Source of the DNA: Myxococcota bacterium
GTDB lineage: Bacteria; Myxococcota_A; SURF-8
Direction: 5' to 3'
Assembly: GCA_965140415.1 (NCBI GenBank)
Contig: OZ223209.1
Coordinates: forward strand, 4,416,001 to 4,480,000
DNA length: 64,000 nucleotides
The notes under the pieces were generated by a model that searched no databases, was not told the origin of the DNA, and worked only from the letters and a program-made list of their open reading frames with translations. Made by a program: the position numbers and the translations under genes. Shown here one piece after another: positions 38,740 to 56,575 of this stretch (within the stretch, counting starts at the first letter, position 1; every line of letters begins with the position of its first letter).

Positions 38740-40377
38740 TTATTTCATCGATTCGAGAAGCAACTCGCAATCGACGAGCGGCTGCCCGGCTGGGTTCTTG
38801 AACGGCGACCAACAATATTCCAGCACCAGACCCAAGCTGTCCGATCCTAACCAATATTGTTCCACCGTTTTCGCATCGGTTTCGCTGGTGGCCGGTATCC
38901 AGTCATACTCGCCATCATCAAGCGCGGCATCCCACAAATTCCAATTCGGGAATTGCGCGTATTGATCCACAGCCCTGGAAATAAAGCCTTGAACTTCATC
39001 CACTTCGGTAGCCGTCAAGGGATAGCCGCTCGCGGCGGCTTGGATGTAATTGATGGCCATATCCCTGAACCAACGCCCCTGCGTATGACTGACCTCTTCC
39101 AGGCTCATCGTGCGATCCCGCTCGAAACGTTCTTCAAGTCCCTGCAACATGCGCAGAGCCAATTCATTTTTCCCATTCAACAACGCCCAGCGAATACTGG
39201 CGATATGAAACGCGCGCATGATGTGAGCATTGGGAGCGTTGTTTTCGATGGATAGCTTTTCGTAGGTCAGATCACCGCCGAAAGGCGTACACTGCAAACC
39301 CTGCTCATCGCCGTAAGCCATCAATGCAGAAGCCAGCTTCGCCTGGCATTCGGCATCTGGGAAAATGGCATCCCAGGCCACAAACGAAGCCAGATCGCCG
39401 GTGTCCGCTTCCTCCGGTCCCTCATCGATCCCCGGCAGATACGGCGTGCCGTCATCGCGCTTCGATCGGATGTTGTATCCATGATCGACGATATCCTGAA
39501 CAAACAGAACCAACAGATCATACGATTCGCTACAGGCTTCCCGAACGGATTCGTCATCCGCGCGTTTCGCAGCATACAGCATGGGGATGGAGACTTCGAA
39601 CAGATAGCCCAAGCCGTCTTTCGAACGGGTATTGGTGACCCAGACCTCACCCCAGTAAGGATTGTTTACATAGTTGAAACGTGAGCAATTCCAGCGATCA
39701 TAGGAGAAAAACCAGTTCGAATAATCCACGGCCTTGGAGTAACCGTCGTGAGTTGTGTAATCGTGATTGAAAGTGATGACGTTTCTGGTCATCAAATGAT
39801 GAACCGAGTCGTTTTCATCATACACCATTCCCAGCATGGTCTGGGAAATTCCCTTGCAATATTGCTCGGATAGCTCTCCCATTACGTCATCGCCGGTCAG
39901 CAGATAGCCACCCAAAGCCGAAGATAAAATCGTGGAATTGCCTTTTAAGATATTGTGTCCGCCGTGCTGCTCGGAATAATTGTGGACCATCGTTACAAGA
40001 TCGCCGCTTTTTTCCGCGTGAGAGTCCGTCCACCACAATCGATAATCCCGCTTGCCGGTAGATGCATCCACACCGTGACTCATACGCAACAGCCAGTCGA
40101 AATATTTCTGATCTACATAGAAATCCGAAAGTTTTTGAGTAAAGCTCGCCAGTTCCTCTTGATTCTGCGCTTGCCCCTCATCCATCCGCTCGAAACTCAA
40201 ATCAAAAGATTCCGGCAGACCGTCATCGAATCCATCGGATTCCGAGTCCGCCAGTTCCGATCCGTCAAGATCGCCATCCACTGCCGAAGAATCCCCATCA
40301 TCGCTGCAACCCAATGTTGCAAAGACCATCATACAGACCAACAATAGAACCAAAGCGAATTCCTGATGATTCATCAT
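38740..40377 (-). CDS. lipoprotein of unknown function, paralog of 19138..20889
   Basis: Lipobox TLGC, DGD linker, conserved motifs shared with the paralog. Confidence 0.8.
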   Translation of the reverse strand: MMNHQEFALVLLLVCMMVFATLGCSDDGDSSAVDGDLDGSELADSESDGFDDGLPESFDLSFERMDEGQAQNQEELASFTQKLSDFYVDQKYFDWLLRMSHGVDASTGKRDYRLWWTDSHAEKSGDLVTMVHNYSEQHGGHNILKGNSTILSSALGGYLLTGDDVMGELSEQYCKGISQTMLGMVYDENDSVHHLMTRNVITFNHDYTTHDGYSKAVDYSNWFFSYDRWNCSRFNYVNNPYWGEVWVTNTRSKDGLGYLFEVSIPMLYAAKRADDESVREACSESYDLLVLFVQDIVDHGYNIRSKRDDGTPYLPGIDEGPEEADTGDLASFVAWDAIFPDAECQAKLASALMAYGDEQGLQCTPFGGDLTYEKLSIENNAPNAHIMRAFHIASIRWALLNGKNELALRMLQGLEERFERDRTMSLEEVSHTQGRWFRDMAINYIQAAASGYPLTATEVDEVQGFISRAVDQYAQFPNWNLWDAALDDGEYDWIPATSETDAKTVEQYWLGSDSLGLVLEYCWSPFKNPAGQPLVDCELLLESMK

Positions 40378-40592
40378 AACTCCTTAAACGATTTCTTTTC
40401 GAACGAATTCAAACCAGCAGCATCCTAGCAGATCGGTCTTCGGAATCAAGATTTCCTTGTTCCGAATCTCCTACAATCGGGTATGCGAGTTCTTTTTCTG
40501 GACTTTCCAAGACCTACGAATAGAATGAGATGCGTTATGCAAGCGTTGGTTGATTTGCTTACCGCCCGGATAACAAATAGAGATTGAAGAAA

Positions 40593-40985
40593 ATGCGTGT
40601 TCTACATGCAAACAAAGGTCGAACGGTCTGCCTGCTGATGGCCACGACCCTGTTCTGGTTGTCCATGTTTTTGGACTTCTTCGCTTTCTCGCATGTCTGG
40701 AGCGTCGAACGAAACACTTTCATCCACCTTCGCAGTTCTCAAACCTGTCTGCAAGCGCATGAGGATGGAGACAATCTCCACTCCGCGAGAGCTAACCAGA
40801 ATACATCTTACAACGAATGTCCGTTTAACGGGTACTGGCGTCACTTCAACGCTCAAAGCGAGCTTTCAGCAATCGTTTGTTACCTCGATACGAATGAAAT
40901 CATCAAAATCCCCATTTCAAACGATCGTATCGACCACTCGCGTCTTTTCAATTTCGCACCCAAAAATTCTCCGCCACTCGGCTAA
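40593..40985 (+). CDS. DUF2946-like small protein (possible metal-sensing leader)
   Basis: N-terminal hydrophobic helix, His/Cys residues (ECPF), C-terminal APKNSPP. Confidence 0.55.
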   Translation: MRVLHANKGRTVCLLMATTLFWLSMFLDFFAFSHVWSVERNTFIHLRSSQTCLQAHEDGDNLHSARANQNTSYNECPFNGYWRHFNAQSELSAIVCYLDTNEIIKIPISNDRIDHSRLFNFAPKNSPPLG

Positions 40986-41104
40986 GCTTCGTCCATTCTC
41001 CCAAGAATCATCAAGTAAAACATTCTCCCGGTAGGATTCAATATCCGAGCCGGTAAGAATTGAAGGTTTCTTTCCATTCACCACGAGCCCAATGGAACAA
41101 CCCG

Positions 41105-41611
41105 ATGTCGGATTCAAAGAAGAACAGATTCGGGGGCGTTTTGATTTTTTCTGCGCTCCTGCTCGTTCCTCTTGCGGCAGTGGCAGGCTGGATCGTTTTC
41201 AAGAATCAAGACCCGTCTGACGTCGAGATGAAAACCATCGAGCGCTGGCGCAATAGTGAAGTAAAAACCGTAGCTTCCGACTGGAGTTCGGGTGAAGACA
41301 CCTACGAACGCTTCTGTAGTTACAAGCCCGATGGGCAACTCGTTGGATGCTGGATCGAAAAGAACGGTTCACCCTGGAGCGGCAACATGGTGAGTTGGTA
41401 TCAGATTCACACGAAAGCCAAGCCGGACCGGGGTTACGGCATTCCGAAAGCGATTCAATCCTATGAAGAAGGTACGCCACATGGGACGTGGCAGTCCTTC
41501 TACGTTACCGGAGCCGTGATGACGGAAGTGGATATTGAAAACGGAAATCGTATCGAAACGCGCATGTTTTCCCCGGATGGAAAATTGCTTAGACGCTTGA
41601 AGATGAAGTAA
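41105..41611 (+). CDS. membrane-anchored MORN-variant repeat protein
   Basis: TM, then YEEGTPHGTWQSFYVTG and MFSPDGKL. Confidence 0.65.
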   Translation: MSDSKKNRFGGVLIFSALLLVPLAAVAGWIVFKNQDPSDVEMKTIERWRNSEVKTVASDWSSGEDTYERFCSYKPDGQLVGCWIEKNGSPWSGNMVSWYQIHTKAKPDRGYGIPKAIQSYEEGTPHGTWQSFYVTGAVMTEVDIENGNRIETRMFSPDGKLLRRLKMK

Positions 41612-41625
41612 AGGGAATCAGGATC

Positions 41626-43476
41626 ATGAATAAGCGAATCAAAGCCTCTTTAATATCCATCTCTACCGATATCTTCCTGATCGCTACCAAGAGTACCTTG
41701 GCAGCCTTGTCGGGAAGCGCAGCTTTGCTGGCAGACGCCTACCACTCGCTATCGGATTTATTCGTGTCTTTAGCCGTTCTTTCCGGTTCGGCTTTCCGAA
41801 GCTGGATGGAAAAACGCGAGCTTCTGCAATCCACACAAGCGGAGTCTGCCGAGAACGAAAATAGTTTGGAATTACAAGAGGTTTCACCAGCGAAAGCAGA
41901 AGAAGACGAAGATTCACCACCCGCCAAACCCGGATACTGGGTCGAGGCGGGAATTACCTATATTATCTCCCTTATTATCCTGTATCTCCCTTATGAAATC
42001 ATTTCGGGTATTTCCAAGCAAAAGAAATACGATCTGGAATATACCTGGCTTGCGATTATCGGCGTTATTGCCTGTATCGTAATTACGTACTTCATTTCCC
42101 GCTACAAACTGCTCGCCGGTCGGGAGGTGGATTCGCCTGCCCTCGTTGCAGATGGCTACCACAGCCGAATGGACATGTTCACCTCCGTGGCCGTGTTGTT
42201 TTCCATGCTTGGCCAGATTATCGGAATCAAACTGGACCCACTGGTAGCAGTTGTAATCGCCGTCATGATCGGCATCGTCGGTCTGGAATTGTTCATTACT
42301 TCCGTTGTTGCGCTGGCCAGAAAATCGGGGCTGAAGCGGCTTTCTCTCTTTGCCTGGCTGTACGAACAAACCGAGCGAGTTTTTACATTCCTTGCCGGAT
42401 TGTTCGTCGGCAAACAACTGAAGCTTTCCGATTTACACCTGGCCGAGCGTCTCTCGCCTGAGCGCTGGTATAGTCACCGCCGCCTGGCTGTGCTTGTTGT
42501 CGTATTTGTCTCCGCATATTTTCTTAGCGGATTGACCATGATTCGACCGGAGGAAACCGGTGTAAAGCTGCGCTTCGGTCACATCGAAAACGATCATCTG
42601 CAACCCGGTCTGACTTACCGCCTTCCCTGGCCCTTTGAATCGATCAAGCGTATTCGAATGCAGGAAATCCGCCGGGTTGAATTCGGCTTCAGGACCGATG
42701 ATCGACTCAACACCAGCATTTCTCCGACTTTGTGGGAAACCAAACACGGAACGAGGGGCTACAAGAAAAAGAAAAAGGAATCCATCACCTTGACCGGAGA
42801 TGAAAACATCATCGATATCAGCCTGGTTCTACACTACCGACCAACCAACCCCATAGACACCCTTTTCCGGGTCAACCGGATGGACAACGTCCTTCGAGGT
42901 CTGCTGGAATCGTCTCTGAGAAAAACAATCTCAGTTCGAAAAGCGGACAGTTTACTGGTGGAAAATCGTCAGGAAGCCTTGAACGCCATTTTAGACGATG
43001 TCCGGGCGCATATCAAACAACTCGACCTTGGAGTGGAAGCGATGGCGCTCTACTGCCACGACTTGCATCCGCCGCTTGAAGTTGTCGGCGCGTTTCGAGA
43101 TGTCTTTTCCGCCCGAGAGGAAAAGATTCAGCTATTGAACAATGCTGAAACCCATCGCAATACCGCGCTTCCAGAGGCGCGCTCGAAAAGCTATCAGAGC
43201 CTTCACGAGGCGCAGGCCGATCGTATCGAACGACGCGAAAAGGCCATTGGGGATGCAAAGAACTTTGCACTCGTTTCGAAAGCATATCGCCGTCAACCGA
43301 AATTGACCGCTTACCGCATGTTTATAGAAATGGCTGAAATCGGAATGGCCGGAAAACGGAAAATCATTGCCGATCCCGAAGTCAACCGGGGCGGATACAG
43401 ACTATGGATGTTTGCACCTGAAAACGGCAATGCATTGAACGATCTGAAAGGATTGAAGAAAGGAGTAAACCGATGA
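41626..43476 (+). CDS. cation diffusion facilitator TM domain fused to an HflK-type SPFH domain
   Basis: SAALLADAYHSLSD and ALVADGYHSRMD (CDF HxxxD motifs), LDPLVA; then GVKLRFG..PGLTYRLPWP, LTGDENII, HPPLEVVGAFRDVFSARE. Confidence 0.88.
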   Translation: MNKRIKASLISISTDIFLIATKSTLAALSGSAALLADAYHSLSDLFVSLAVLSGSAFRSWMEKRELLQSTQAESAENENSLELQEVSPAKAEEDEDSPPAKPGYWVEAGITYIISLIILYLPYEIISGISKQKKYDLEYTWLAIIGVIACIVITYFISRYKLLAGREVDSPALVADGYHSRMDMFTSVAVLFSMLGQIIGIKLDPLVAVVIAVMIGIVGLELFITSVVALARKSGLKRLSLFAWLYEQTERVFTFLAGLFVGKQLKLSDLHLAERLSPERWYSHRRLAVLVVVFVSAYFLSGLTMIRPEETGVKLRFGHIENDHLQPGLTYRLPWPFESIKRIRMQEIRRVEFGFRTDDRLNTSISPTLWETKHGTRGYKKKKKESITLTGDENIIDISLVLHYRPTNPIDTLFRVNRMDNVLRGLLESSLRKTISVRKADSLLVENRQEALNAILDDVRAHIKQLDLGVEAMALYCHDLHPPLEVVGAFRDVFSAREEKIQLLNNAETHRNTALPEARSKSYQSLHEAQADRIERREKAIGDAKNFALVSKAYRRQPKLTAYRMFIEMAEIGMAGKRKIIADPEVNRGGYRLWMFAPENGNALNDLKGLKKGVNR

Positions 43477-44357
43477 AGAAAATACTGGTTGCACTCGGAG
43501 CATTAACGATATTGGTTTACCTGTTGAGCTTTTCGTTCGTCGTGTTGGACGAAACGGAAATGGGAATCGTGACCACGTTCAACAAGCCCACTCAGATCAT
43601 TAAGGAAGCCGGGCTGATCGTGAAATGGCCGGACCCCATCCAATCGGTAATACGACTCGACCGACGACTGCAAGCCCTGGATTCCAATCTTGGAGAATAT
43701 CTCACCCGCGACAAAAAAAACCTGGTTGCAAGCAGCTTTATTCTCTGGCGCATCGACAATCCAGAACGCTTCATCCAAAGTGTCCGCAGTAAAAAGAACG
43801 CTGAAAAGCGCCTTGCCGATCTGGTTGGCTCCGAATTGGGAGTGGCGCTGGGAGAACATCCGCTACACGATTTCCTGACAACGGAAGAAAGCGGAAGCCA
43901 AATCACCGAAATCTCCACACATGTGTACAAACAAACGAAAAACGCGGCTTTGCAGGACTTTGGAGTCGAACTGGCAGATGTACAGATTCGACGACTGGGC
44001 TTTCCATCTCAGAACCTGCGCTCCGTTTACGACCGCATGAAAGCCGAGCGCGAACGAATCGCCAAAAAATACCGCGCAGAGGGCGAAGAAGAAGCCTCGA
44101 AAATCCGTTCCCAGACCGACAAGGAAGTTCGGGATCTGCTTGCCGAAGCCTATCGAGATGCACAGATCACCAAAGGCCAGGGAGAAGCGGAAGCCATTCG
44201 CATTTATGCCGAAGCTTTTTCGAGCGATCCGAAGTTCTACAAATTGACGCGCACGATGGAAGCGTACCGGAACATGCTCGATGATAAAACGACCTTGATT
44301 CTTTCCGCCGATTCACCGTTGTTCAAGTATCTCGAAACACCACCGGAGGGTCGCTAG
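43473..44357 (+). CDS. hflC: HflC-family SPFH protein
   Basis: LTRDKKNL, VYDRMKAERERIAKKYRAEG, GEAEAIRIYA..DPKFY. Confidence 0.9.
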   Translation: MKKILVALGALTILVYLLSFSFVVLDETEMGIVTTFNKPTQIIKEAGLIVKWPDPIQSVIRLDRRLQALDSNLGEYLTRDKKNLVASSFILWRIDNPERFIQSVRSKKNAEKRLADLVGSELGVALGEHPLHDFLTTEESGSQITEISTHVYKQTKNAALQDFGVELADVQIRRLGFPSQNLRSVYDRMKAERERIAKKYRAEGEEEASKIRSQTDKEVRDLLAEAYRDAQITKGQGEAEAIRIYAEAFSSDPKFYKLTRTMEAYRNMLDDKTTLILSADSPLFKYLETPPEGR

Positions 44358-44359
44358 CC

Positions 44360-45292
44360 ATGCCGAACGATCCCATCATCGAACATACTTTCCGCAATGC
44401 GAAAAGAATCGTGTTGGCAGCCTGCCTGCTGGCCATAATCGTCTATTTCGCAACAGGAATCTATTCGGTAACTCCGACCCAGACCGGAGTCATCAAGCGA
44501 TTCGGGGTAATCGTCAACGACGACATCTCTCCGGGAATTCACTACCACTGGCCGTGGCCTATCGAACTTGTTGCACGCCCGAATACCAAGGAAATCCGAA
44601 GCATGAAGCTTGTTTTCGATCAGACGACCATCTCGAAAGAGCACGCCGGAGAAGGTGCATTGTTAACCGGTGATGAAAACCTGGTTTTGTTGACCTTGCT
44701 GACCCAGTACACCATCGATAATCCACGGCAATATCTGACCGTCTTTTCCAATCCCGATGAATTACTGAAACGCCTTATTCTGGCAGCCTGCGTTCGATAC
44801 ATGGCAGGCACTTCCGTCGATGATATTTTGACCACCGGTCGTAATAACCTTCAGAGAACGCTGAAGAGCGAAATCCAGAAAAGCTCTAACCGTTTCGGAC
44901 TGGGGCTGCGCATCGTCTCCATTCAGGTCAAAAATATCGAACCGCCTACTAGCGTCGCCCACGCCTTTAAAGACGTCGCTTCCGCACGGGAAGACATGCA
45001 CAAAATGCTGCAAAATGCGAACGGAGAAAAGAACCGCCGTCTCCCGGAAGCCCGCGCAGATGCCGAGAGTCTGCGCCAGCAGGCCGAGGCCTATGCAAAT
45101 GAAACCGTTCAGAAAGCGAAAGGCGACGCCGACCGCTTCCTTTCGACCTGGAAGGAATATCGCAAAGCAAAAAGTGTGACCGCTCAGCGAATTTATTTCG
45201 AAACAGTCGAATCCATCATGACCAAAGTCAAAAAGCAGATCATCAACCCTCGCGCCGAGCGCAGACTCGGTCAGGGAGGCATGTATCAATAG
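44360..45292 (+). CDS. hflK: HflK-family SPFH protein
   Basis: GVIKRFG..PGIHYHWPWPIE, LTGDENLV, PPTSVAHAFKDVASARED, AKGDADRF. Confidence 0.9.
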   Translation: MPNDPIIEHTFRNAKRIVLAACLLAIIVYFATGIYSVTPTQTGVIKRFGVIVNDDISPGIHYHWPWPIELVARPNTKEIRSMKLVFDQTTISKEHAGEGALLTGDENLVLLTLLTQYTIDNPRQYLTVFSNPDELLKRLILAACVRYMAGTSVDDILTTGRNNLQRTLKSEIQKSSNRFGLGLRIVSIQVKNIEPPTSVAHAFKDVASAREDMHKMLQNANGEKNRRLPEARADAESLRQQAEAYANETVQKAKGDADRFLSTWKEYRKAKSVTAQRIYFETVESIMTKVKKQIINPRAERRLGQGGMYQ

Positions 45293-45295
45293 GAA

Positions 45296-45904
45296 ATGAC
45301 GATGTCCCCAATACAATGGCGCTTTCTCGTACTGTTATTTCTATGTCTCGTTACAATTCCAACATCTTCGGCCCGGGCGCATCCGCATATCTTTGTGGAC
45401 GCGCGTGTAACCCTTCTTTTCGACGAGCAGGGATTAGCCGGTTTCCGGCAGGAATGGACCTTTGACGAAATGTTCGGAGAGTTCATCCTGGAAGATTACG
45501 ATGCCAATAAAAACAAGCGCTTCGAAGATAAAGAAGTTTTAAAGATCAAAGCGGAAGCCTTTGACAACCTTAAAGAAAGCGACTATTTCCACATCGTTCA
45601 ACTCAACGGCAAACCCTTTGCTGTAAAATATGCGACGGACTTTTCCGTGCAGTTTAAAAATGAGCGTGTGGTGTACACCTTCACGGTTCCCTGCCACATG
45701 AAAGTGGCAGCGAAATCCACTTTAGACATTTCCCTGTCCCTTTCCGATAAAACGATTTACACCGATCTCGTTTTTACGAAAGACAGCCCGAAATCCGATG
45801 GAAAATCAAGTCTGTTCAACACTCAACACAAACTGGATGATGGCGTGCAGCCAAGCGGTCAAGTTCTGGCCCAAACCCTGCATATCAAGGTGACACGCAA
45901 ATGA
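45296..45904 (+). CDS. DUF1007 family periplasmic protein
   Basis: Signal peptide followed by AHPHIFVD, WTFDEMF. Confidence 0.88.
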   Translation: MTMSPIQWRFLVLLFLCLVTIPTSSARAHPHIFVDARVTLLFDEQGLAGFRQEWTFDEMFGEFILEDYDANKNKRFEDKEVLKIKAEAFDNLKESDYFHIVQLNGKPFAVKYATDFSVQFKNERVVYTFTVPCHMKVAAKSTLDISLSLSDKTIYTDLVFTKDSPKSDGKSSLFNTQHKLDDGVQPSGQVLAQTLHIKVTRK

Positions 45905-46836
45905 AAACCTGTGCCGTCATTGCGATCCTGCTCCTGTTTTCAATGCTCTTTGCCATGGAAGTAGAAGCAGGAAACCCGTTCCTCTCCAAGAAGAAAACGG
46001 AACAAGTTACTCCGCAACACGAAACAGAACCCACAGAAACTCTCGTCACGAGCAAAATGCCGGAGTGCTTTGCCCCGATCCTGCGAACAGTCAACGACTG
46101 GCAGAAAGAGTTGAAGCAACAATTGAGCACGTTTGCACGCGATATGAAGACCAATCCTTTCGGCAAATCCTTCCTTCTTTTTCTGCTGCTTTCTTTTGTT
46201 TATGGAAGCGTTCACGCAATTGGTCCCGGGCATGGCAAATCGGTGGTAGTCAGTTATTTTCTGAATCGGCCAGGAAAACTCTGGCAGGGAATCGCGATGG
46301 GGCATCTTATTACCGCCGTTCACGTCGCCTCCGGAGCGCTTGTTGTGCTGGTAATGGCATTGATTTTAGATACGACCCGATTGACGGATTTCGAAGAGGC
46401 AAGCCCGAACCTGGAGGCCATAAGCTACATCCTGGTGATTCTGATCGGGTTGTATCTGATCGTTCATACAATATTGGACCTGAAAAGGCGCAGTTGGGAA
46501 AACACGGAGGAATCAACATCCGGCAATCTGCGAGGCATATTGCTCACCGCCATTGCTACCGGGCTGGTTCCCTGCCCCGGTGCAGCACTGATTCTACTTT
46601 TCTCTGTAATTCTCGGCGTATTCGCTCAGGGACTGGTCGCGATGCTGTTCATTGCATTGGGAATGGGGCTAACCACCAGCCTCTTCGCAATAATCGCTAT
46701 TACCTCGCGCCGAACGGTACTAAACGTTGCACGACGTAACGAAAAAGTTTTTATCGGTGCATACTCGATCTTGTCCTTCGGCGGAGCATTTACGATTATC
46801 TTGCTGGGTTCGGTAATGCTTGCAGGCCTGCTGTAG
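45901..46836 (+). CDS. nickel/cobalt transporter, RcnA/HoxN-like
   Basis: YGSVHAIGPGHGKSVV, GLVPCPGA. Confidence 0.88.
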   Translation: MKTCAVIAILLLFSMLFAMEVEAGNPFLSKKKTEQVTPQHETEPTETLVTSKMPECFAPILRTVNDWQKELKQQLSTFARDMKTNPFGKSFLLFLLLSFVYGSVHAIGPGHGKSVVVSYFLNRPGKLWQGIAMGHLITAVHVASGALVVLVMALILDTTRLTDFEEASPNLEAISYILVILIGLYLIVHTILDLKRRSWENTEESTSGNLRGILLTAIATGLVPCPGAALILLFSVILGVFAQGLVAMLFIALGMGLTTSLFAIIAITSRRTVLNVARRNEKVFIGAYSILSFGGAFTIILLGSVMLAGLL

Positions 46837-46886
46837 AAGATAACCTACACTTTTAAAGCGACGATCATGGAACGGAAAGAATGGAA

Positions 46887-47591
46887 TCAGCCGATGGGCT
46901 CGCCCAGGGTTTGAATTACCATCTCGATATATTCGGCAATGGCTTTGGCATTTTCGCTGTTTTCCTCGAATTGCAAACCAACCAGAATCCGTTTGGTGTT
47001 CATATCCACCCGCTTCACGACGCACTCCAGGTTGTCAATCGCTTTACCGTTGGGAAGAGTGAAGGAAAGTCGGATCGATTCTTCTATTCTGGGTGGGTCC
47101 ACCATCTGAACCAGCGCACCGCTGGAACTCAAATTCAAGATGGTATTGCCACTATCCTGTGAATCGTTAAGCCGAAAAGGAATGACCATTTGAATTCGTG
47201 GTGAACGACGTAGGGATATTTCTTCGATACGACTGGGATATTTCAGGAAAGTCAGGTTCAACGGCGAGCCGATGGTTCGGAAAATTGTTGTCTGAAACCC
47301 GAAAACACTGCCCTCGCACATGTAGCGGACGGCCATCTGGTTCTGCCCACCATAATTGACCAGCATCCCGTTAATGCGGGGAGTCATCAGAATCAGGTAT
47401 TCACCACGCAAATATCCCAATAGCTTGGTTTTCCACTTGTCCTTGTCCGACCGACCCAGCGGTTGCATAAACATATCCATACCGACCTGAAACGAAGTCA
47501 GAAAGGAAGTGTCATGCTGTTCGTGTAAGCGTTTAGGAGCTTTGGCGGCTTCGTAGAATCGCCCAAGGGAATCCTGATTATTGTGGCTCAT
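46887..47591 (-). CDS. PilZ-domain c-di-GMP receptor (YcgR/flagellar-brake-like)
   Basis: RxxxR motif (RRSPR) and NLSSSGA, with an N-terminal PilZN-like domain. Confidence 0.88.
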   Translation of the reverse strand: MSHNNQDSLGRFYEAAKAPKRLHEQHDTSFLTSFQVGMDMFMQPLGRSDKDKWKTKLLGYLRGEYLILMTPRINGMLVNYGGQNQMAVRYMCEGSVFGFQTTIFRTIGSPLNLTFLKYPSRIEEISLRRSPRIQMVIPFRLNDSQDSGNTILNLSSSGALVQMVDPPRIEESIRLSFTLPNGKAIDNLECVVKRVDMNTKRILVGLQFEENSENAKAIAEYIEMVIQTLGEPIG

Positions 47592-47941
47592 CGTCTGTAC
47601 TTCCCCAGTTTTCACCCGCCGATTGGATTTGCCTAAAACCTCTCGGCGGAATTCTACATCGAGTAAAATTATAAAAGGATATTACCTTAAACGCAAGTTA
47701 TTGAACGGTTATATTGACGAATGAGAATGAGCCATTCGGAAAAAACAGCAGCTTATCTGTAACAATTACAATTTGAGAGAGCAACTAACCGACTTTTAAC
47801 AGAGCAACCTCCCCTTTTCGTGTAGACTGCAACCACCTAACACGCATGGTTCTTTATTATCTTTTCCCTGCCGGTCATCCCTATGGATGGCCGGTTCTCT
47901 TTTCCTAAGATCGAATAACCCAACAAAATATTTCCTAAACA

Positions 47942-47967
47942 GGAATAATTCCGGCAGTAGCACAGTT
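47942..47967 (+). promoter_or_regulatory. putative ECF-sigma promoter GGAAT-N18-GTT (also at 48079-48104 and 48216-48241)
   Basis: Both boxes and the 18-bp spacing are invariant in three copies while spacer bases vary. Confidence 0.55.
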
Positions 47968-47974
47968 ATATCTT

Positions 47975-48044
47975 ACAACGTGGCAACAAACATTCCATCC
48001 CCCTTGGCCGGTCATCCCTCTGGATGGCCGGTCCCTCCTTTATG
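47975..48044 (+). ncRNA. candidate sRNA, copy 1
   Basis: 70-nt block identical in three copies, between the promoter motif and a 3' hairpin. Confidence 0.5.
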
Positions 48045-48111
48045 TAAAAATCAATAGAGGAAAAAAAGTGTACGTGCGGGAATAGTTCCGGCTGCAACAC
48101 GGTTATATCTA

Positions 48112-48181
48112 ACAACGTGGCAACAAACATTCCATCCCCCTTGGCCGGTCATCCCTCTGGATGGCCGGTCCCTCCTTTATG
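48112..48181 (+). ncRNA. candidate sRNA, copy 2
   Basis: Identical to copy 1. Confidence 0.5.
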
Positions 48182-48248
48182 TAAAAATCAATAGAGGAAA
48201 AAAAGTGTACGTGCGGGAATAGTTCCGGCTGCAACGCGGTTTTATCTA

Positions 48249-48318
48249 ACAACGTGGCAACAAACATTCCATCCCCCTTGGCCGGTCATCCCTCTGGATG
48301 GCCGGTCCCTCCTTTATG
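48249..48318 (+). ncRNA. candidate sRNA, copy 3
   Basis: Identical to copy 1. Confidence 0.5.
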
Positions 48319-48342
48319 GGTACTTGAAAACGCACAAAACGA

Positions 48343-48371
48343 TTGAAGCATTTTCGTTTCTGCCTTACCAT
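48343..48371 (+). promoter_or_regulatory. sigma70-like promoter
   Basis: TTGAAG-17bp-TACCAT. Confidence 0.5.
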
Positions 48372-48398
48372 AAGCTTCCATACAGAAGGGAGGCTTTC

Positions 48399-48689
48399 GT
48401 GCTTTTCCAGGTACAAGTCATTCAAGCGGGACAGGAAATTTACTCCATGACATTGGATAACCCCGATGCAGCATCCCGCACGGCTCTTTACTTTACTGTC
48501 AAATACGACGGCCGCGCGGATTGCATCCTGTCCTCCAATAAAGATGGACTGCAACAGTGTTGGTATTTTGATAACGAATCTGAAGACTGGCTGGAGGCAG
48601 ACAGCGAACAACTGGCCGCACTTGCCGCCGAAAAAGACCCTATCGCAGCGACTCGGACCTTCTTCAACAACATCGGCAAAGTATTATAG
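48399..48689 (+). CDS. hypothetical protein (96 aa)
   Basis: Strong RBS GGGAGG before GTG 48399. Confidence 0.7.
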   Translation: MLFQVQVIQAGQEIYSMTLDNPDAASRTALYFTVKYDGRADCILSSNKDGLQQCWYFDNESEDWLEADSEQLAALAAEKDPIAATRTFFNNIGKVL

Positions 48690-49070
48690 GTGAAGAATCA
48701 ACGTGGCTTTTCGATGCTTCAAGCGCACCGTATGGATTCCGGCATCCAAGAACAAACCTCGAATCTTTTGATCCGTATTTAACAGCTTTCTGGATTCGTA
48801 GGCTTCCGCTTTGCTCTGTTTGGCAGACAATTCACTGAAATCGGCCAGCAATGCATCGGGACCGGTAATCGTACAGGTGATATCGACCCCTCTCTGCTGC
48901 ATTCCTGCAACGAACAAGGTGCATACATCCAACTGAGGTTGCGTCGGCTCGTAATTCTCAGCAGAAGCGGAGCCTTTTTCTTCCTGGGCGGAATCGGAGC
49001 AGCCTGCAATCGCAAGCATCATCATGCCGGCACAGAGCAAGATCGCTAACGCCAGCTTAAACACCGGCAT
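48684..49070 (-). CDS. small lipoprotein
   Basis: Signal peptide with lipobox IAGC. Confidence 0.65.
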   Translation of the reverse strand: MPVFKLALAILLCAGMMMLAIAGCSDSAQEEKGSASAENYEPTQPQLDVCTLFVAGMQQRGVDITCTITGPDALLADFSELSAKQSKAEAYESRKLLNTDQKIRGLFLDAGIHTVRLKHRKATLILHL

Positions 49071-49140
49071 TTGAGCATGACTGCCCGACCTTCGAGTTTT
49101 TATCTTCTTGATAACCATGACTTCTTTCAATGATGTGGGA

Positions 49141-50103
49141 TCAGGTTTCGGAAGTATCTTCCATATTTTCCGGCAAGACTTTTAACGGCAATACCCGATG
49201 GTGGTTCTCAAACACGCAGGGCAACATGCCGGGCTGTTCGCCATCCATATCGATATATACATCCTGATCCGACTCGGCCACGATGCGCTTGCCTCGAATC
49301 ACGCGGAACTTGGGTAATTGCAGGTGAGTCCCTTTGTAGATGTGGCTACTGCTGGCAATGATTTCGCGCTTGTTCAGATCTCCCATAATGACGACATCGA
49401 ACAGGCCATCGTCGATTTCCGCCTGCGGCGCGATCATCATGCCACCGCCATAGAAGCGACCATTCGCCACCGACACCACGTTGATGGTCAGTTCTTCGTC
49501 GAAATGATCGTCGATCTTCAAACGCACACGTTGATTTTTATATCGCAGCAGAGCCCGTAAAGTAGCCAGCAAGAAACTCATTTTGCCACCCAGCGCCTTG
49601 CTGCTGGTATTGCAAATGTGATCCACCAATCCGCTCATGCCGAAACTGGTGATATTGGCAAAATACGAGCCGGTATCCTTTCCGTCGTGATCGCGATAGC
49701 TGAAGCGCCCCACATCGATAGGACGGATATGCTCGCCTGCAATGCGTTCGATGGCGCTTTCAAGCGTTAGATCCCAACCGAAGGTCTTTCGGAAATCGCC
49801 GCCTGTACCGCGACTGATGTTGCAGAAGGCACAGTCCGGGTTGATCTGGCGTTCGCCATCGAAAAAACCGTTAACGACTTCGTTATTGGTACCGTCGCCG
49901 CCGACGGAGACAATCTGCTCGTAGCCCTTTGCCACCGCCTCACGTGTCAATTCGGTTGCCTGCCTGGGATACTCGGTAAAGGCAGAATCGAAAGCACCGA
50001 TACGCCTGCGAATGCGTTCCTCCATCAGCGGCCATGCGCGCGCTGTGGAACCATTGGCGGAATTGGGATTGACGACGATAAAGGTTTTTCGTTGACTGGT
50101 CAT
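49141..50103 (-). CDS. diacylglycerol kinase (DAGKc/YegS) family lipid kinase
   Basis: VNPNSANG, GGDGTNNEVVNG, GTGGDF, NGRFYGGG, DGE. Confidence 0.93.
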   Translation of the reverse strand: MTSQRKTFIVVNPNSANGSTARAWPLMEERIRRRIGAFDSAFTEYPRQATELTREAVAKGYEQIVSVGGDGTNNEVVNGFFDGERQINPDCAFCNISRGTGGDFRKTFGWDLTLESAIERIAGEHIRPIDVGRFSYRDHDGKDTGSYFANITSFGMSGLVDHICNTSSKALGGKMSFLLATLRALLRYKNQRVRLKIDDHFDEELTINVVSVANGRFYGGGMMIAPQAEIDDGLFDVVIMGDLNKREIIASSSHIYKGTHLQLPKFRVIRGKRIVAESDQDVYIDMDGEQPGMLPCVFENHHRVLPLKVLPENMEDTSET

Positions 50104-50121
50104 AGCCCCATTTCAATCTGT

Positions 50122-51240
50122 TCAGGTTAAACAGGCATCCAATACTTCGGCCAGTGTCTTGACCGAGGGATCATCCGCTTGGCGCACCTTTGATAGCGCC
50201 AGCGCTTCTTTGGGAGAATCGGTAACGATCAGTTCTGCGCGCACCTCAACAGCCTGGCGCAAACACTCGCGACTGATGGCGTCCGCCGCTTCCGGGAACA
50301 TCCATTCATAAACATCCAACGTCCCGCTGGGATAGCTGCTCTTCCCTTCCCACACCAAAGAAACCGGTTGATGCTTACTCACATTGTTCAATATCGCTTG
50401 CACCCGACTTTCCTCGCCAAGATAACGTGTAAGATACGCCGAGGAATGATAGGCTGGGATATCTTCTAGCTTGTTCGCTATTTCCATGCCGCTCAGATAG
50501 GAATCCAGGCATTGGCTGATGTGCATCACGCGATCCGAGAAATTGTAGCCCAACTCCAGATACAATGCCTTCAGCGTATAAACCGCTTCGGGGCTGCTGC
50601 ACACAATTAACTTGTAGTTCATCAATCGTTCGGCTACCTGTTTGGCCAATTCTTTGAATTCGCGATGAAATCCGGCGCGGTACAGCGGCAGCCCTGCACA
50701 GAAACCGGGACCGGTATAACAGGATATATAGTCGATACCCAGTTTCTCGAACAGGGAGAACGTCGCCCGGATTTCGTTTGGCAGTGCGGATAAGCTTTCC
50801 CAGTCCGGCCAATAAACCGCCTGGGCATCGTCAACGAAATACCGTTCCGGAACCAGCGTTTTCAGCGTTCCCGCCAAATCCGTTCCGTTCGGATTTTCCA
50901 TACCAACCATGGCTTCGCGCAGTTGTTGCAAACGCGGATGCACCACTCCCTTTTCGATCAGCAACGCTCGCGCATCCGTAAGCACTTCGCCCACTTCGAT
51001 TTCATGCTTGCAGTACGTCGTACACAAACGGCAGGCCAGACAGTGATACAACGGCTCCACCGTGTCATGTTCCAAGGGAACCAAGCCTTTGCGCAGCAGA
51101 TTGGCCAGCGTCATTTTAGCCCAGGGCGTTACCGCCTCGCGCTTTTCGGCATTGGATACCGGGCAGGCGAAAGTGCACAGTTTAGGGCAGTAGGTGCAGT
51201 AATCCAGCGCCTGTTTGTGCCGTTCAAGTCGCGTGATCAT
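50122..51240 (-). CDS. (Fe-S)-binding protein, GlcF/GlpC-like
   Basis: CTYCPKLCTFACP and CLACRLCTTYC, followed by degenerate CCG-like domains. Confidence 0.85.
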   Translation of the reverse strand: MITRLERHKQALDYCTYCPKLCTFACPVSNAEKREAVTPWAKMTLANLLRKGLVPLEHDTVEPLYHCLACRLCTTYCKHEIEVGEVLTDARALLIEKGVVHPRLQQLREAMVGMENPNGTDLAGTLKTLVPERYFVDDAQAVYWPDWESLSALPNEIRATFSLFEKLGIDYISCYTGPGFCAGLPLYRAGFHREFKELAKQVAERLMNYKLIVCSSPEAVYTLKALYLELGYNFSDRVMHISQCLDSYLSGMEIANKLEDIPAYHSSAYLTRYLGEESRVQAILNNVSKHQPVSLVWEGKSSYPSGTLDVYEWMFPEAADAISRECLRQAVEVRAELIVTDSPKEALALSKVRQADDPSVKTLAEVLDACLT

Positions 51241-52268
51241 GGCGTTTGAAACAGCCTTTCCATTAAAGGATCGGAGAACATCCGCTCCCAGTGTTTGTCG
51301 ATCTTGCCGCTCAAGGGCCGCAATTCAAGAACAACCGCCTGTACGTCATTGAGCAATTGCAGCAGATCTTCTACTTCCTTGGAGATCAATACCCGATCCC
51401 GTTCACCCTCATAGGAAAGCAGGCGCATCGAATACAGCGCGGCATCATGCCAGCAACCGGTCAGACTGGTCTGTACGGGATAAATGCCGGCGGCCCTGCG
51501 CGTCAACTCACGCAGCATCGCCGACACACGCGCCCAGCGAATGGATACATGCAACTGCACTTCCGCCTGTTGCTCCTCTTTAGGCGGCGCAAACAGCGCA
51601 AGACCAGAGAGCGGACCATCGTAAAAAACGTCATCAAGTCGCTCGACGGAAAGATCCTTCAAAGCCTGCACAAAGCGTGTCGTGCAGAAATCGACCACAT
51701 GCGGGTCGCCCTCGTAACCGATCTGCAACACGCAGCGGTCCGATTGCTCTTCCCCTTCCAGAAACAGCGCCTGCGAAGATTCGGCATCGTACAAGCGCAC
51801 GAACTGGGGCCGGTTCTTCTCCTGCACCTGGCGGCGCAAACAGGCCAGTGCATCGTCAACAAAGCGAAACGCCAGCGTCGTGACTCTCCCCTGTTCTGGA
51901 AGCGATTGTACGCGCAGCGTAAAACGGCGGATGTCCCCACCCCATTGCTTATTACCAGTCAGTAGATAGCGCAACCCCGGTCCGGCGGCAGAACGCGGCG
52001 ATAGCACCGTTTCAGCGATTTCTCCGCTATCGAAAGCCACCTTGACTGCCGCCAGCAGGCTTTGCGAATCGCCGTGTTTCAAATACGGCTCCAGCGCATA
52101 TCCACCGCAGAAAGCATCGGCGATGGTCAGTTCTTCGTCCGAACCGATATAACCCAGCGTAAAGCCCTTTTGCTGTAATTCCGCTTCCAACTCCAACCAG
52201 CGAAGCTCGCCAGAAACGGTGAGTAACATGGACTGCCGATCCAATTCATATTCGATGTGGTGACTCAT
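51237..52268 (-). CDS. truncated/divergent FAD-linked oxidase (VAO family) homolog
   Basis: GFTLGY, PRSAAGPGLRYLLTG, RLYD; lacks the N-terminal FAD-binding loop and the HHH motif. Confidence 0.7.
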   Translation of the reverse strand: MSHHIEYELDRQSMLLTVSGELRWLELEAELQQKGFTLGYIGSDEELTIADAFCGGYALEPYLKHGDSQSLLAAVKVAFDSGEIAETVLSPRSAAGPGLRYLLTGNKQWGGDIRRFTLRVQSLPEQGRVTTLAFRFVDDALACLRRQVQEKNRPQFVRLYDAESSQALFLEGEEQSDRCVLQIGYEGDPHVVDFCTTRFVQALKDLSVERLDDVFYDGPLSGLALFAPPKEEQQAEVQLHVSIRWARVSAMLRELTRRAAGIYPVQTSLTGCWHDAALYSMRLLSYEGERDRVLISKEVEDLLQLLNDVQAVVLELRPLSGKIDKHWERMFSDPLMERLFQTP

Positions 52269-53848
52269 GACGGCGTCCCCAGCTTTCCCGGATTCATTAC
52301 ACTTTCAGGGTCCAGTTTGGCTTTGAGCTTCTTATACAGCGGCCACAGACGGCCATACTCGGCAGGCAGCATGGCGCCCTTACTGAAACCAACTCCGTGA
52401 TGATGAGTAATAGTCGCGCTCATGGCGTGCACGGCAGATAAAGCGTTACGCCACACGCGGGCGTGTTGATGCTCCATCCGCTCGGTCGAGGAAGCCGAAG
52501 AGGCGAAGGAAAAATAGATGCAGCAGCCGTCGCGATAAGCATGGGAGAAATGCGCCATGATAAAGGCGTCCGGTGCAACCGCTTTTTTAACGGCCTGATA
52601 CAGCACCGGAACATTGCTCCAGGTCGTGGCGACTTCCATCGTATCCACCCAGCCGTCCGCATCGAAAATCTTCGACTGCTTGTAGGAGATCGCATAACGA
52701 TGCTCCAGCCAGTAGCGGGCCGGACCTTCCCCGGCATCGCGTCCGCGATTGTCCAGGCAGATCGAGCGGATCTGCCCGGCTTCGAACTGCGCCAGATCCC
52801 GCTCTCCCTCGGTCAATACCACCAGCAGGCAGCGCCCCGGAAGCTTGTCGATCAGGCGATTGAGAATCCCCGGTCGCCGCAGTGCCTGGGTTAAGGAACG
52901 ACGCTTGAGCAGGCCAAAGGCATCGCCGAACGCCTTACGCAATAGCGAAGGCATCTCCTCCTCTGCGCCCTGCTGATCTTCTCCGGGATCACCATGCGTT
53001 CCGGCGATGATCGTGTCGAACTCGTCATAGAGCCGCAACACGCAAGGTTCGTAGCCCTGCTGCATCACGCCACGCATGGCTTCCAGGCCACGCTCGATGG
53101 AAGGAAAGTGAAACGCGAGAAATTCACGATGCTTGGGCAGGGGATGTACACGCATCCAGGCACGGGTAATTACCGCAAGCGTCCCCTCCGACCCGATTAT
53201 GATCTGATTCCAGTCCGCACGCGATGCGCCACTGGAAGAAGCCGAGGTGCGATGGATGGAGCCATCCGGCAGCACGAATTCCAACGCCACTACCATATCT
53301 TCGATCTTGCCGTAGCGACTGGACATCTGCCCGGCAGAACGCGCCGCCAGATAGCCGCCCAGGGTGGAACAGTAAATCGAACTGGGAAAATGTCCCATGG
53401 TATAGCCGAGCGGATTCAGGCGACGCTCCAGGGTTTCTCCGTAGATACCCGGTCCAAGTTCCGCCACCAATGACTCGCTGTCGATGCCATGGATTTCGTC
53501 CATCCGCTTCAGGTTCAGTGCAATACCGCCGGTAAAGGGAATCGTCCCTCCACAGACGCCGCTCCCCGCTCCATACGGGATCACCGGAATCCGATGCTCA
53601 CTTGCCCAGCGCAACAATGCAGAAACTTCTTCCGCTGTGGCGGGGCTGACAACCGCATCCGGTGGATGGGGAACATGACCGCGCTTGGTCCAGAGCACGC
53701 TGCGCGGCCACATGTCGCGGGAATGAACAAGGCGATCCGCCATGGCAATGGAGACATGCTCCGCCCCAACAATCCCCGACAATTCCTCCAAATGCTCGGA
53801 GGAAAAAGTCGATGCTTTGAATAATGGCCTCACGGTTAGATCTTTCAA
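52265..53848 (-). CDS. alkyl-dihydroxyacetonephosphate synthase-like FAD oxidoreductase
   Basis: PYGAGSGVCGG, GHFPSSIYCSTLGG, GSEGTL, LRLYD, HFSHAY, THHHGVG, MNPGKL. Confidence 0.85.
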   Translation of the reverse strand: MKDLTVRPLFKASTFSSEHLEELSGIVGAEHVSIAMADRLVHSRDMWPRSVLWTKRGHVPHPPDAVVSPATAEEVSALLRWASEHRIPVIPYGAGSGVCGGTIPFTGGIALNLKRMDEIHGIDSESLVAELGPGIYGETLERRLNPLGYTMGHFPSSIYCSTLGGYLAARSAGQMSSRYGKIEDMVVALEFVLPDGSIHRTSASSSGASRADWNQIIIGSEGTLAVITRAWMRVHPLPKHREFLAFHFPSIERGLEAMRGVMQQGYEPCVLRLYDEFDTIIAGTHGDPGEDQQGAEEEMPSLLRKAFGDAFGLLKRRSLTQALRRPGILNRLIDKLPGRCLLVVLTEGERDLAQFEAGQIRSICLDNRGRDAGEGPARYWLEHRYAISYKQSKIFDADGWVDTMEVATTWSNVPVLYQAVKKAVAPDAFIMAHFSHAYRDGCCIYFSFASSASSTERMEHQHARVWRNALSAVHAMSATITHHHGVGFSKGAMLPAEYGRLWPLYKKLKAKLDPESVMNPGKLGTPS

Positions 53849-53884
53849 CGACTTGATGGTTTAGGCCAGGCGAACGGTAAAACC

Positions 53885-54388
53885 TTATTTCATCAACAGA
53901 TCGGCGGCATCGCGCACGCCTTTGATGAGCTTGTCTTCGCCGCTCACTTCGTGAGTCACACGCTTTTCGATCTTCTTGGAGACGGTGGAAATCAGGCTCA
54001 GGCTGATCACGAATGTTTTCCCGACTTTACCGATGGTTCCATTTACGAGGTAGGGCGATTCCAGCAACTTTCCAATAGCCTCATAACAGGCATCGTCATC
54101 GCAACTGCCCAATAACGCCGTCTGCTGCGCCGAAGCCAGAATGGCATTGACGTCGGAGGCGCAGATCACGTTGTACTTTTTGTGCGTCATCAGCCGCGTG
54201 CACAGCACGTCCGTCAAGGTGGCGGCAGTATCGGCATCCACACCTTTTCCACCCAGGGTTTTAATCGCCATGCGGGCAGCCGGTTCGCTCTTTTTAGCCG
54301 CCGGTTCAGCCGCTACCGCCATCTGCATCCACAACAGACATAGGGCCATCAGCACTACGATGATCGTCAAGCCAGCACGTTTCATCAT
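53885..54388 (-). CDS. secreted protein with TolB-N/CsgG-like fold
   Basis: Signal peptide; CDDDACYEAIG..LVNGTIGKVG. Confidence 0.65.
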   Translation of the reverse strand: MMKRAGLTIIVVLMALCLLWMQMAVAAEPAAKKSEPAARMAIKTLGGKGVDADTAATLTDVLCTRLMTHKKYNVICASDVNAILASAQQTALLGSCDDDACYEAIGKLLESPYLVNGTIGKVGKTFVISLSLISTVSKKIEKRVTHEVSGEDKLIKGVRDAADLLMK

Positions 54389-54450
54389 GTTTCCTCCCGC
54401 TCTTTCGGTTTGTCCGAAAAAAATAGTTCCTCATTTTGAGCAACTGATTC

Positions 54451-55275
54451 TCATTTCAAAATCACCACATCTCCGGAAGCCAATCCTTCTTCCGACCGGA
54501 TACGCGCAAGCGAACCGACCACCCGTTCGATGTGGCAACGTCCTTCGCTTCCATCCTTTTTGGCGATCCGGCAATTCATCTCCTTCGCAACTCCGTCGCG
54601 ATGACCTTTGTCGATCCAAGCCTTGACGCCTTTGACTTTCGTTACCTTTGCGCGTAACCCGACTTTCGAACTCTTCTTTGCAACCTGTTTTTTGTTGGAT
54701 GCTTCATCGTGTACCCCAAGCATCCGGCGAATATCCTGTTCGATGCGCTTGATTTCCGATGCTTCACCACCCACATACATGGTTTTGATACGGCCATCGG
54801 GCGCGATCAAAAAAGAAGCCGGCAGGTTGAATTCGTCATCGAAATAGCGCCTGGCTACGATGTTCATCCGGTCAGACAGCACAGCAAACGAAGGTTTCTG
54901 TTTCTTTACATAGCGAGTCGCTTTCTCCAAGCCTTCGCCGTCGCGATCGATATTGACCATGATCACAACCAGTCCACGATCACGGTATTTCGCCTCGATC
55001 TGCTGGATCTGCGGAAACTCGGCCATGCAGGGTTTGCACCAGGAGGCGAAAAATCCCAACAATAGCGCCTTCGCCGGAGCTTTCGCGTCCTCACCTACAT
55101 AGTTGTCCGGGTAAACAACCGATGCTTCTCCAGCCGCCGGAACCAATCGCTTCAATCCAAACGTTTCAAAGAACTGCCCGGTCTGTACTTTGCTGCCCGC
55201 CCAGGCGACGGTCGACCCGAAAAGAAGGCCAACGACCACGGCAACGAATCCTGCGTATCGACTAAATCCACTCAT
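54451..55275 (-). CDS. TlpA/ResA-family thioredoxin-like disulfide reductase with C-terminal beta domain
   Basis: FFASWCKPCMAE, LPASFLIAPDG. Confidence 0.88.
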   Translation of the reverse strand: MSGFSRYAGFVAVVVGLLFGSTVAWAGSKVQTGQFFETFGLKRLVPAAGEASVVYPDNYVGEDAKAPAKALLLGFFASWCKPCMAEFPQIQQIEAKYRDRGLVVIMVNIDRDGEGLEKATRYVKKQKPSFAVLSDRMNIVARRYFDDEFNLPASFLIAPDGRIKTMYVGGEASEIKRIEQDIRRMLGVHDEASNKKQVAKKSSKVGLRAKVTKVKGVKAWIDKGHRDGVAKEMNCRIAKKDGSEGRCHIERVVGSLARIRSEEGLASGDVVILK

Positions 55276-55536
55276 ATTTCGCCAACTTGCTTCCACGTTC
55301 GAATGTAGCTCACATCTCGATAATTGATAGATGACTCGCCTGCATCGTAGCGCGGAACGGCATGAGGCGTCAAGTTCTTATTCGGTCATGAACCCCCGCA
55401 AAAACAACAGGTTGACGCAACTTCCTCTCCTCCCAAAGGATAGCCCATGCGCCCATTCAGCCAACTGTCAAAGTTCGACCGTAAAACGGGCGCGAGTATT
55501 CAAAAGGAATGAAAAAAAGTCTCTGGATAAGGAATG

Positions 55537-56163: not shown

Positions 56164-56336
56164 TCCTTGAAGCGGTTAGCGGTTTTAGGCAGTGTACCTT
56201 AACGAACGAAATGGGGATAGGAAAAAGAGATTCTTCTCCCATCACATCTGACTTTCTGGAAAACAAGCAGGATCTCTTCGTTGCCATCTCCGACGCCGGG
56301 TGCAATACAAGAAATTGCGAACCTGCTGATTACAGT

Positions 56337-56533: not shown

Positions 56534-56575
56534 CAAGAGGCTCACCTGCAACAAACGTTGCAGAAGTGTTCTCAA

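Follow-up and report, generated by a model that had tools for sequence, protein, structure and literature searches.

What kind of element is a row of matching hairpins set at a fixed interval between two divergent genes? The question is raised by an 807-bp intergenic region (47592-48398) in a 64-kb window, the whole 64,000-nucleotide stretch of DNA analyzed here. A PilZ gene on the minus strand lies on one side of the region and the gene for a 96-amino-acid (96-aa) protein, on the plus strand, lies on the other. Our best explanation, offered tentatively and at somewhat less than an even chance, is that the region carries a tandem set of putative plus-strand, C/U-rich sibling sRNAs of an anti-Shine-Dalgarno type. 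Three near-identical sRNA genes of ~60-70 nt would then lie beside an old remnant, u0, which we infer has kept only its terminator hairpin.

Three near-identical units and one isolated hairpin

A tandem repeat was delimited by TRF at 47942-48318, with a period of 137, 2.8 copies, 96% matches and no indels. The 26-nt hairpin pattern GCCGGTCATCCCTNTGGATGGCCGGT occurs four times, each time on the plus strand, at 47870, 48007, 48144 and 48281, which bears out the exact 137-bp spacing claimed in a first-pass annotation of this DNA. The positions given there are those of the CCGG, which starts at 47871 in the first hairpin and is likewise offset by one in the others. Elsewhere in the window, no match to GCCGGTCATCCCTNTGGATGGCCGGT was found at three or fewer mismatches (0 expected, 100 shuffles), and a test for REP/MITE-type dispersal gave no further hairpin copy within the 64 kb. 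The 70-mer that the annotation had described as identical in three copies has 0 mismatches among 47975-48044, 48112-48181 and 48249-48318, and the sequence supports the proposed unit layout of upstream block, 70-nt body and hairpin. The array and its flanking genes comprise the following features.

46887..47591, minus strand: PilZNR+PilZ (YcgR-like) gene, assigned by domain search, divergent from the array
47870..47895, plus strand: hairpin u0, with an 11-bp stem, loop CUAU and tail UCUCUUUUCC, in surroundings unrelated to the other units
47942..47974, plus strand: upstream block of unit 1, palindrome GGAATAATTCC and then TTATATCTT, a candidate promoter or operator
47975..48044, plus strand: 70-nt block, copy 1 (putative sRNA 1), hairpin at 48006-48033
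48045..48078, unstranded: A-rich spacer, identical to 48182-48215
48079..48111, plus strand: upstream block of unit 2, GGAATAGTTCC and then TTATATCTA
48112..48181, plus strand: 70-nt block, copy 2 (putative sRNA 2), hairpin at 48143-48170
48182..48215, unstranded: A-rich spacer, second copy, from the unit comparison
48216..48248, plus strand: upstream block of unit 3, differing from that of unit 2 at 2 positions (31/33 identical)
48249..48318, plus strand: 70-nt block, copy 3 (putative sRNA 3), hairpin at 48280-48307; the repeat ends at 48318
48399..48689, plus strand: gene for the 96-aa protein, GTG start, directly downstream of the array
48684-49130, minus strand: orf148, with a signal peptide and a lipobox-like IAGC, by eye
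49141-50103: YegS-like kinase gene, with relatives at 60-66% identity

For comparison, the units were cut in hairpin register into five parts: spacer (37 nt), upstream block (33 nt), body (32 nt), hairpin (26 nt) and tail (9 nt). Units 2 and 3 (u2 and u3) agree at all but 2 of 137 positions; the two exceptions, A to G and A to T, lie within the upstream block, and the spacers are identical (37/37). Between unit 1 (u1) and u2, identity is at the random level in the spacer (10/37), is 27/33 in the upstream block, and is complete in the RNA part formed by body, hairpin and tail (67/67). Of the 100 positions homologous between u1 and u2, six differ; the 33-nt upstream block accounts for every one of these, and the 67-nt RNA part is unchanged (Fisher p=0.0009). 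This clustering fits a constrained RNA with freer promoters; the 100% identity of the u1 RNA part could also come from gene conversion.

The hairpin of u0 agrees with those of the other units at 25/26 positions, the single change being in the loop. Similarity of its two flanks to the other units is not significant (an equal or better score in 1100 and 1669 of 2000 shuffles), and by the same kind of test neither the spacer after u0 nor the leader that follows the array shows significant homology to the unit. Matches to CTGCAAC and CTAACA, seen by eye, were accordingly dropped. Since the flanks are dissimilar, the array consists of three units and one isolated hairpin, not of four units: what the annotation had called a fourth, upstream unit keeping mainly the hairpin stands as a hairpin and falls as a unit. 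The isolated hairpin nevertheless lies exactly one period (137 bp) upstream of the u1 hairpin, and we have no good explanation for this spacing. Simple unequal crossing-over between hairpins appears to fit it poorly, as the spacer between u0 and u1 would then have been copied, and the later spacers are unrelated.

Recent duplication and the meaning of copy number

Every unit has private substitutions, which makes it unlikely that the assembler collapsed or expanded a single unit; further identical copies could have been collapsed in the assembly. The array described in the first-pass annotation is real. Part of it is a very recent duplication, as follows from the two differences in 137 positions between u2 and u3, so its copy number need not be selected, and the identity of these two units can come from youth rather than from selection.

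These observations lend some weight to the idea that the multiplicity as such is neutral: slippage or unequal crossing-over would have recently duplicated a segment containing a single element with a function, be it a terminator, an sRNA gene or a leader, and the number of copies would have no function. The identical spacers of u2 and u3 speak for it, as does the abrupt start of the u1 homology at the palindrome, which resembles a duplication end point, and the array was found in no relative among those searched. What neutral duplication accounts for less well is that u1 is older, with its six differences, yet unchanged throughout the 67-nt RNA part, and that the u0 hairpin was kept amid unrelated surroundings. 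The private substitutions, in turn, speak against an artefact of one assembled unit. On balance, we regard functionless copy number as unlikely.

Plus-strand hairpins in a non-coding repeat

As judged from the sequence, the repeat is non-coding, as the annotation had held. With a period of 137, which 3 does not divide, the reading frame breaks between units. Repeated minus-strand ORFs of 52 and 54 aa can be read from the sequence; in unit 1 a TAA closes the frame after the sixth codon, and the differences between u2 and u3 both alter residues of this repeated ORF. The repeat ORFs had no Pfam match at E<=10. A protein-coding repeat is ruled out by the unit 1 stop codon, the frame-breaking period and the Pfam result.

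The terminator scan of 47500-48500 returned four terminator-like matches (shuffle mean 1.2); they are the four hairpins, all on the plus strand, and no terminator-like site was found on the minus strand. Among 29 terminator-like matches in 40001-60000 the four have the longest stems, and they resemble hairpins of the window that lie directly 3´ of real genes (15174-15145, 32780-32751 and 30915-30895). A same-strand hairpin thus accompanies every copy (4/4 on the plus strand), a likeness to terminators in pattern only, and the U-tract in units 1-3 is weak.

The stem of units 1-3 has 12 bp and the loop CUCU. The annotation had pointed to a closing G-U pair on the plus strand that becomes a C-A mismatch on the minus strand; this is correct, and the stem has two such pairs. 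Hairpin energies on the plus strand are -21.1 (u1-3) and -19.6 (u0) against -14.3 on the minus strand, so the plus strand folds better by 5-7 kcal/mol. In longer segments, 74 nt around copy 2 fold at -23.0 kcal/mol on the plus strand (z -2.40; minus strand z -0.97), and 68 nt around u0 at -19.6 kcal/mol (z -3.87, 0/200 shuffles as good; minus strand z -1.73). Both the terminator scan and this folding asymmetry support the plus-strand call of the first-pass annotation. The tail after u0, UCUCUUUUCC, is U-rich. In u1-3 the hairpin is followed by a weak U-tract, CCUCCUUUAU, at which termination may be inefficient. No plus-strand protein gene lies upstream, the neighbor being on the minus strand; any RNA ended by these hairpins must therefore start inside the intergenic region.

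The upstream blocks as candidate promoters

Where such an RNA would start is less clear. The annotation had given each unit a self-contained promoter and hence separate transcription, and neither claim is supported by our scans: no sigma-70-like site was found in 47500-48500, the tails CCUCCUUUAU are weak U-tracts, and what each copy does have is the 33-nt block, conserved at 27/33 and 31/33 between units. This block contains a GGAATA[A/G]TTCC palindrome and a TTATAT/TATCTA stretch. No -35 element was seen in it by eye; ECF and sigma-54 promoter readings, also by eye only, were rejected for misfitting spacings. The window has no occurrence of the palindrome outside the three units, so no regulon backs it. 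Searched as a regulon motif, GGAATANTTCC was not enriched (5 matches against 4.4 expected, 4/5 of them inside the array). The 10-mer ACGGTTATAT of the unit 2 upstream block recurs once, at 47705-47714, out of register and ~155 nt before the u0 hairpin, with marginal significance (109/2000 shuffles score as well).

Candidate anti-Shine-Dalgarno motifs and the adjacent 96-aa gene

With 26 C and 14 G, the plus strand of the 70-mer is rich in C. Each copy holds three TCCC (UCCC in RNA), against 3.8 per kb in the window, and one CCTCC (CCUCC). These motifs fall in CAUCCCCCUU, which is predicted to be single-stranded, at the hairpin tip UCCCUCU, and in the 3´ tail UCCCUCCUUU. Such stretches are complementary to Shine-Dalgarno sequences, and ACAUUCCAUCCCCCUU, read from the sequence, is complementary to a Shine-Dalgarno plus AUG at normal spacing.

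The array and the 96-aa gene point the same way, with 80 nt between the end of the array and the start of the gene. The ribosome-binding region of this gene, 48379-48391, is complementary to the repeat 3´ tail at 11/13 positions. A search for the tail complement gave three matches outside the array, against 1.21 expected window-wide. When start regions were ranked by duplex with the tail, that of the 96-aa gene came first of 56 (-14.8, with -12.4 for the next), a post hoc result from one of two probes tried; with the other, the internal single-stranded stretch, the same gene ranks only 17 of 56. The UAUG bases used in the tail pairing probably lie beyond the termination point. A duplex scan of start regions with the whole RNA showed no enrichment (start-region mean -24.4 against -26.6 for background) and is uninformative.

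From these elements we infer how the putative sRNAs could work. Each unit would be transcribed from its own upstream block, beginning near the start of the invariant 70-mer, and the GC-rich 12-bp hairpin would terminate the transcript. Its exposed UCCC and CCUCC stretches (before the hairpin, at its tip and after it) would pair with purine-rich ribosome-binding sites and so block translation, and the RNAs would act additively because of their copy number. The adjacent 96-aa gene would be the best candidate target in the window. This sRNA reading draws on the plus-strand orientation of 4/4 hairpins, the lack of a plus-strand gene upstream, the fold asymmetry, the non-coding repeat, the clustering of substitutions in the upstream block, the richness in TCCC, the match of tail and Shine-Dalgarno sequence, and precedents in other bacteria; against it are the lack of a sigma-70 site, of a regulon and of a homolog, the weak U-tract, the youth of u2 and u3, the dissimilar flanks of u0 and the post hoc nature of the target. 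The interpretation as sibling sRNAs in the first-pass annotation is, to this extent, partly supported by the sequence.

The same position and orientation would also suit an action in cis, with the units forming leader modules for the 96-aa gene or serving it as attenuators. Transcription would begin within the array, the hairpins would be leaky terminators, in keeping with the weak U-tracts, and the anti-Shine-Dalgarno stretches of the read-through RNA would help to close the ribosome-binding site, to which the tail is complementary. A read-through RNA spanning 48249-48425 does fold well (-55 kcal/mol, z -3.55, 0/200 shuffles), with the start region enclosed. In that predicted fold, however, the Shine-Dalgarno of the 96-aa gene pairs with the local AAGCUUCC at 48372-48379, not with the repeat tail, as part of one further feature.

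48372..48396, plus strand: predicted leader hairpin AAGCUUCC/GGAGGCUU, which occludes the Shine-Dalgarno of the 96-aa gene in the fold

Moreover, neither a leader nor a riboswitch of Rfam matched, it is hard to see what purpose three identical attenuators in a row would have, and a near-consensus promoter read by eye, TTGAAG-17-TACCAT at 48344-48372, could serve the 96-aa gene alone. A leader role for the array is in our view rather improbable.

Possible alternatives: an orphan RNA, DNA sites or the minus strand

More speculative, and less probable again, is that the array belongs to an orphan RNA family of deep, uncultured-type Myxococcota. The hairpin would be a protein-binding module, with both its sequence and the 137-bp phasing under selection, and the RNA would form an sRNA/small-protein pair with the 96-aa protein (compare CcsR-CcaF1), regulating translation of the neighbors, including the c-di-GMP receptor gene. 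The annotation had named the divergent neighbor as a PilZ receptor gene, and PilZNR and PilZ domains were indeed found at 46887-47591 (minus strand). Four homologs of the 96-aa protein (P0123, P0124, P0125 and P0136; 74-91 aa), found on Myxococcota-type contigs, share an MLF N-terminus and make up a small family with it; for the 96-aa protein itself there was no Pfam, NCBIfam or PADLOC match. Its structure is predicted as beta-beta-alpha-beta-beta (pLDDT 86.6). The model had no PDB match at E<=0.001 (best E 0.08, TM <=0.31), and a fold search of the ESM Atlas returned unnamed clusters only, at 0.81.

It is very unlikely that the 26-bp near-palindromes act as DNA, as phased sites bound by a regulator that serves both the PilZ gene and the divergent 96-aa gene. 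The 137-bp spacing amounts to ~13 helical turns, and in u0 it is the hairpin sequence itself that was kept (25/26, with no compensatory change) at exact spacing despite unrelated flanks. Yet the palindrome is imperfect in a way that suits RNA (G-T in 2/12 positions), the conservation is asymmetric over 70 nt, and no DNA-binding gene is adjacent.

Slimmer still is the chance that the functional strand is the minus strand, as a GGA-rich RNA titrating a CsrA/RsmA-type protein or as a long PilZ leader: that strand has 21 GGA in 449 nt against 9 on the plus strand and runs toward the PilZ gene, but it has no terminator-like site, folds no better than shuffles (z -0.97), keeps the GGA of the main hairpin in the stem, not the loop, with two C-A mismatches, matches no CsrB/Rsm-type family in Rfam, and faces a good proximal PilZ promoter seen by eye. 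This likely promoter of the PilZ gene itself (TTGCGT-17-TATAAT, 47696-47668, minus strand, below the scan threshold) argues against the array as a PilZ leader. No CsrA-type gene, and no Hfq gene, was found among the ~60 ORFs of the window scanned against Pfam or NCBIfam.

Two known classes were rejected. A CsrB/RsmZ-type sponge has many GGA in loops and its own terminator; here the GGA of the main hairpin is in the stem, there is no minus-strand terminator and no Rfam match. A CRISPR array has short repeats and unique, shorter spacers of similar length; here the intervals are 111 nt and two of the three are near-identical.

Search for relatives

Covariance models of Rfam 15 gave 0 matches at the gathering score over the whole window, and at E<=10 the interval 47600-48450 gave a single chance-level match (E=7, a eukaryotic lncRNA model), which agrees with the first-pass annotation, where the array was not recognized as a known family and an Rfam scan was proposed as a check. 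A scan for tRNA and tmRNA found none.

A search of genome contigs with the PilZ protein, for synteny, found no relative. On the other flank, an alignment of YegS-like kinase relatives fetched 80 Myxococcota/Deltaproteobacteria loci (1.09 Mb), the best at 60-65% identity; those relatives that have a name are MAGs labeled Myxococcales, Myxococcota or Deltaproteobacteria. Several of the 80 loci preserve the gene order glcD-orf343-glcF-YegS, and the PilZ, orf96, orf148, NicO, DUF1007 and SPFH genes occur in 0/80, so synteny ends at the array side of YegS. Against these loci, blastn of 47601-48400 gave chance matches only (E>=2.5), TRF found no comparable array beside YegS, and the covariance model R1, built from the four copies, recovered only those four (next best E=0.075). 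Plasmid and phage collections held no match to the array. No homolog, and hence no covariation or cross-species conservation in support of the RNA, was found in Rfam, the 80 loci, plasmids or phages.

The PilZNR+PilZ protein had no homolog but itself at E<=0.001 in a database of 5.8 billion proteins, which is unusual for such a widespread domain pair. One unrelated MAG locus among those fetched, L041, has a tandem array of its own at 1910-2323 (period 144, 2.9 copies, 97% matches), dissimilar to the array of the window.

Comparison with known multicopy sRNAs

Several bacterial systems offer precedents. NsiR1 of Nostoc sp. PCC 7120 is described as a ~60-nt RNA encoded in 12 tandem copies, with their own promoters, upstream of a gene, the central copies being identical and the peripheral ones diverged (PMC9045159). 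The array shares with this description the tandem direct repeats of a ~60-70-nt putative sRNA upstream of a gene and the diverged edge unit. It differs in having three copies and one hairpin, and in showing no sequence or structure match (Rfam) and no DIF1-type promoter motif that could be identified.

The five near-identical LhrC1-5 RNAs of Listeria monocytogenes are reported to carry three redundant, CU-rich UCCC sites, one of them in the terminator loop, which bind Shine-Dalgarno regions, and their transcription depends on a two-component regulator (PMC4132741). Multiple near-identical copies and three UCCC sites, one at a hairpin tip, are, on that account, features in common. Unlike the putative RNA of the array, with ~70 nt, one strong hairpin and one UCCC in the 3´ tail, LhrC has 111-114 nt and two stem-loops; it also comes from another phylum, and the Rfam scans gave no homology.

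CcsR1-4 and other cuckoo RNAs are, according to their reports, homologous sRNAs in a row with anti-Shine-Dalgarno motifs, beside the gene for CcaF1, a small DUF1127 RNA-binding protein (PMC8034643; PMC4615179). Several copies in a row, motifs of this type and an adjoining small-protein gene recur here, whereas the cuckoo RNAs are described as carrying CCUCCUCCC in hairpin loops and being processed from a UTR. Membership in the cuckoo/CcsR group, of which the CIN1 subgroup has an adjacent DUF1127 gene, was rejected: CCUCCUCCC is absent from the units, the loop is CUCU, and the 96-aa neighbor lacks DUF1127 or any Pfam domain.

Within the Myxococcota, the Pxr paralogs of Cystobacter are tandem sRNAs of myxobacteria, each reported to have its own promoter (PMC5568312). 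As described there, Pxr has sigma-54 promoters, two or three stem-loops and paralogs that are 14-23% diverged; the array has no sigma-54 motif by eye, one hairpin, identical copies and no Rfam match. The csRNAs ccnA-E of Streptococcus pneumoniae are presented as highly similar, two of them in tandem, and as pairing additively with the Shine-Dalgarno-to-AUG region of a target (PMC4507080). By the same account they depend on CiaR direct-repeat promoters, and they have no homology to the array.

By analogy, then, the array may work like NsiR1, LhrC, the csRNAs, CcsR or Pxr, and no Rfam match makes it a member of any of them. If real, it would be a new RNA family in a well-known tandem sRNA architecture, one that is textbook for sibling sRNAs and so implies no new class of mechanism. 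An sRNA array in this poorly sampled, Myxococcota-like bacterium remains a prediction from sequence. If expressed, it would join the very short list of regulatory RNAs, other than Pxr, known from Myxococcota, and its lineage is one that has been seen almost exclusively in metagenome bins; our literature search found no RNA-seq work on small RNAs of Myxococcota. Its expression would also give one more independent example of anti-Shine-Dalgarno sRNAs in multiple copies, with a bearing on why tandem amplification of such RNAs tends to recur.

Other repeats and genes in the window

Just upstream of the ribosome-binding site of the PilZ gene, probably in its 5´ leader, is a 15-nt inverted repeat (47616-47649, 80% complementary, 4-nt loop). 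An 83-nt repeat, present at 9319-9401 and 56337-56419 with 87% identity, folds on the plus strand into a single long and very stable hairpin (-46.7 kcal/mol, z -5.09, 0/200 shuffles). It had no Rfam match; it may be a structured RNA or an element of REP/MITE type. One copy of a 57-nt repeat (9234-9290 and 32547-32603, 74% identical, with an identical 3´ end TGTAGCGGCGGAGCGTAAG) lies just before this 83-nt hairpin element. An intergenic repeat of 65 nt, with its two copies 24 kb apart at 6174-6238 and 30661-30725, is 95% identical and contains the hairpin GGAAGGGATTCCCTTCC, and its homology ends sharply on both sides. Finally, a 1877-aa YD-repeat/RHS-core protein is encoded at 32802-38435 on the minus strand, and its gene is followed by the strong terminator-like hairpin at 32780-32751.
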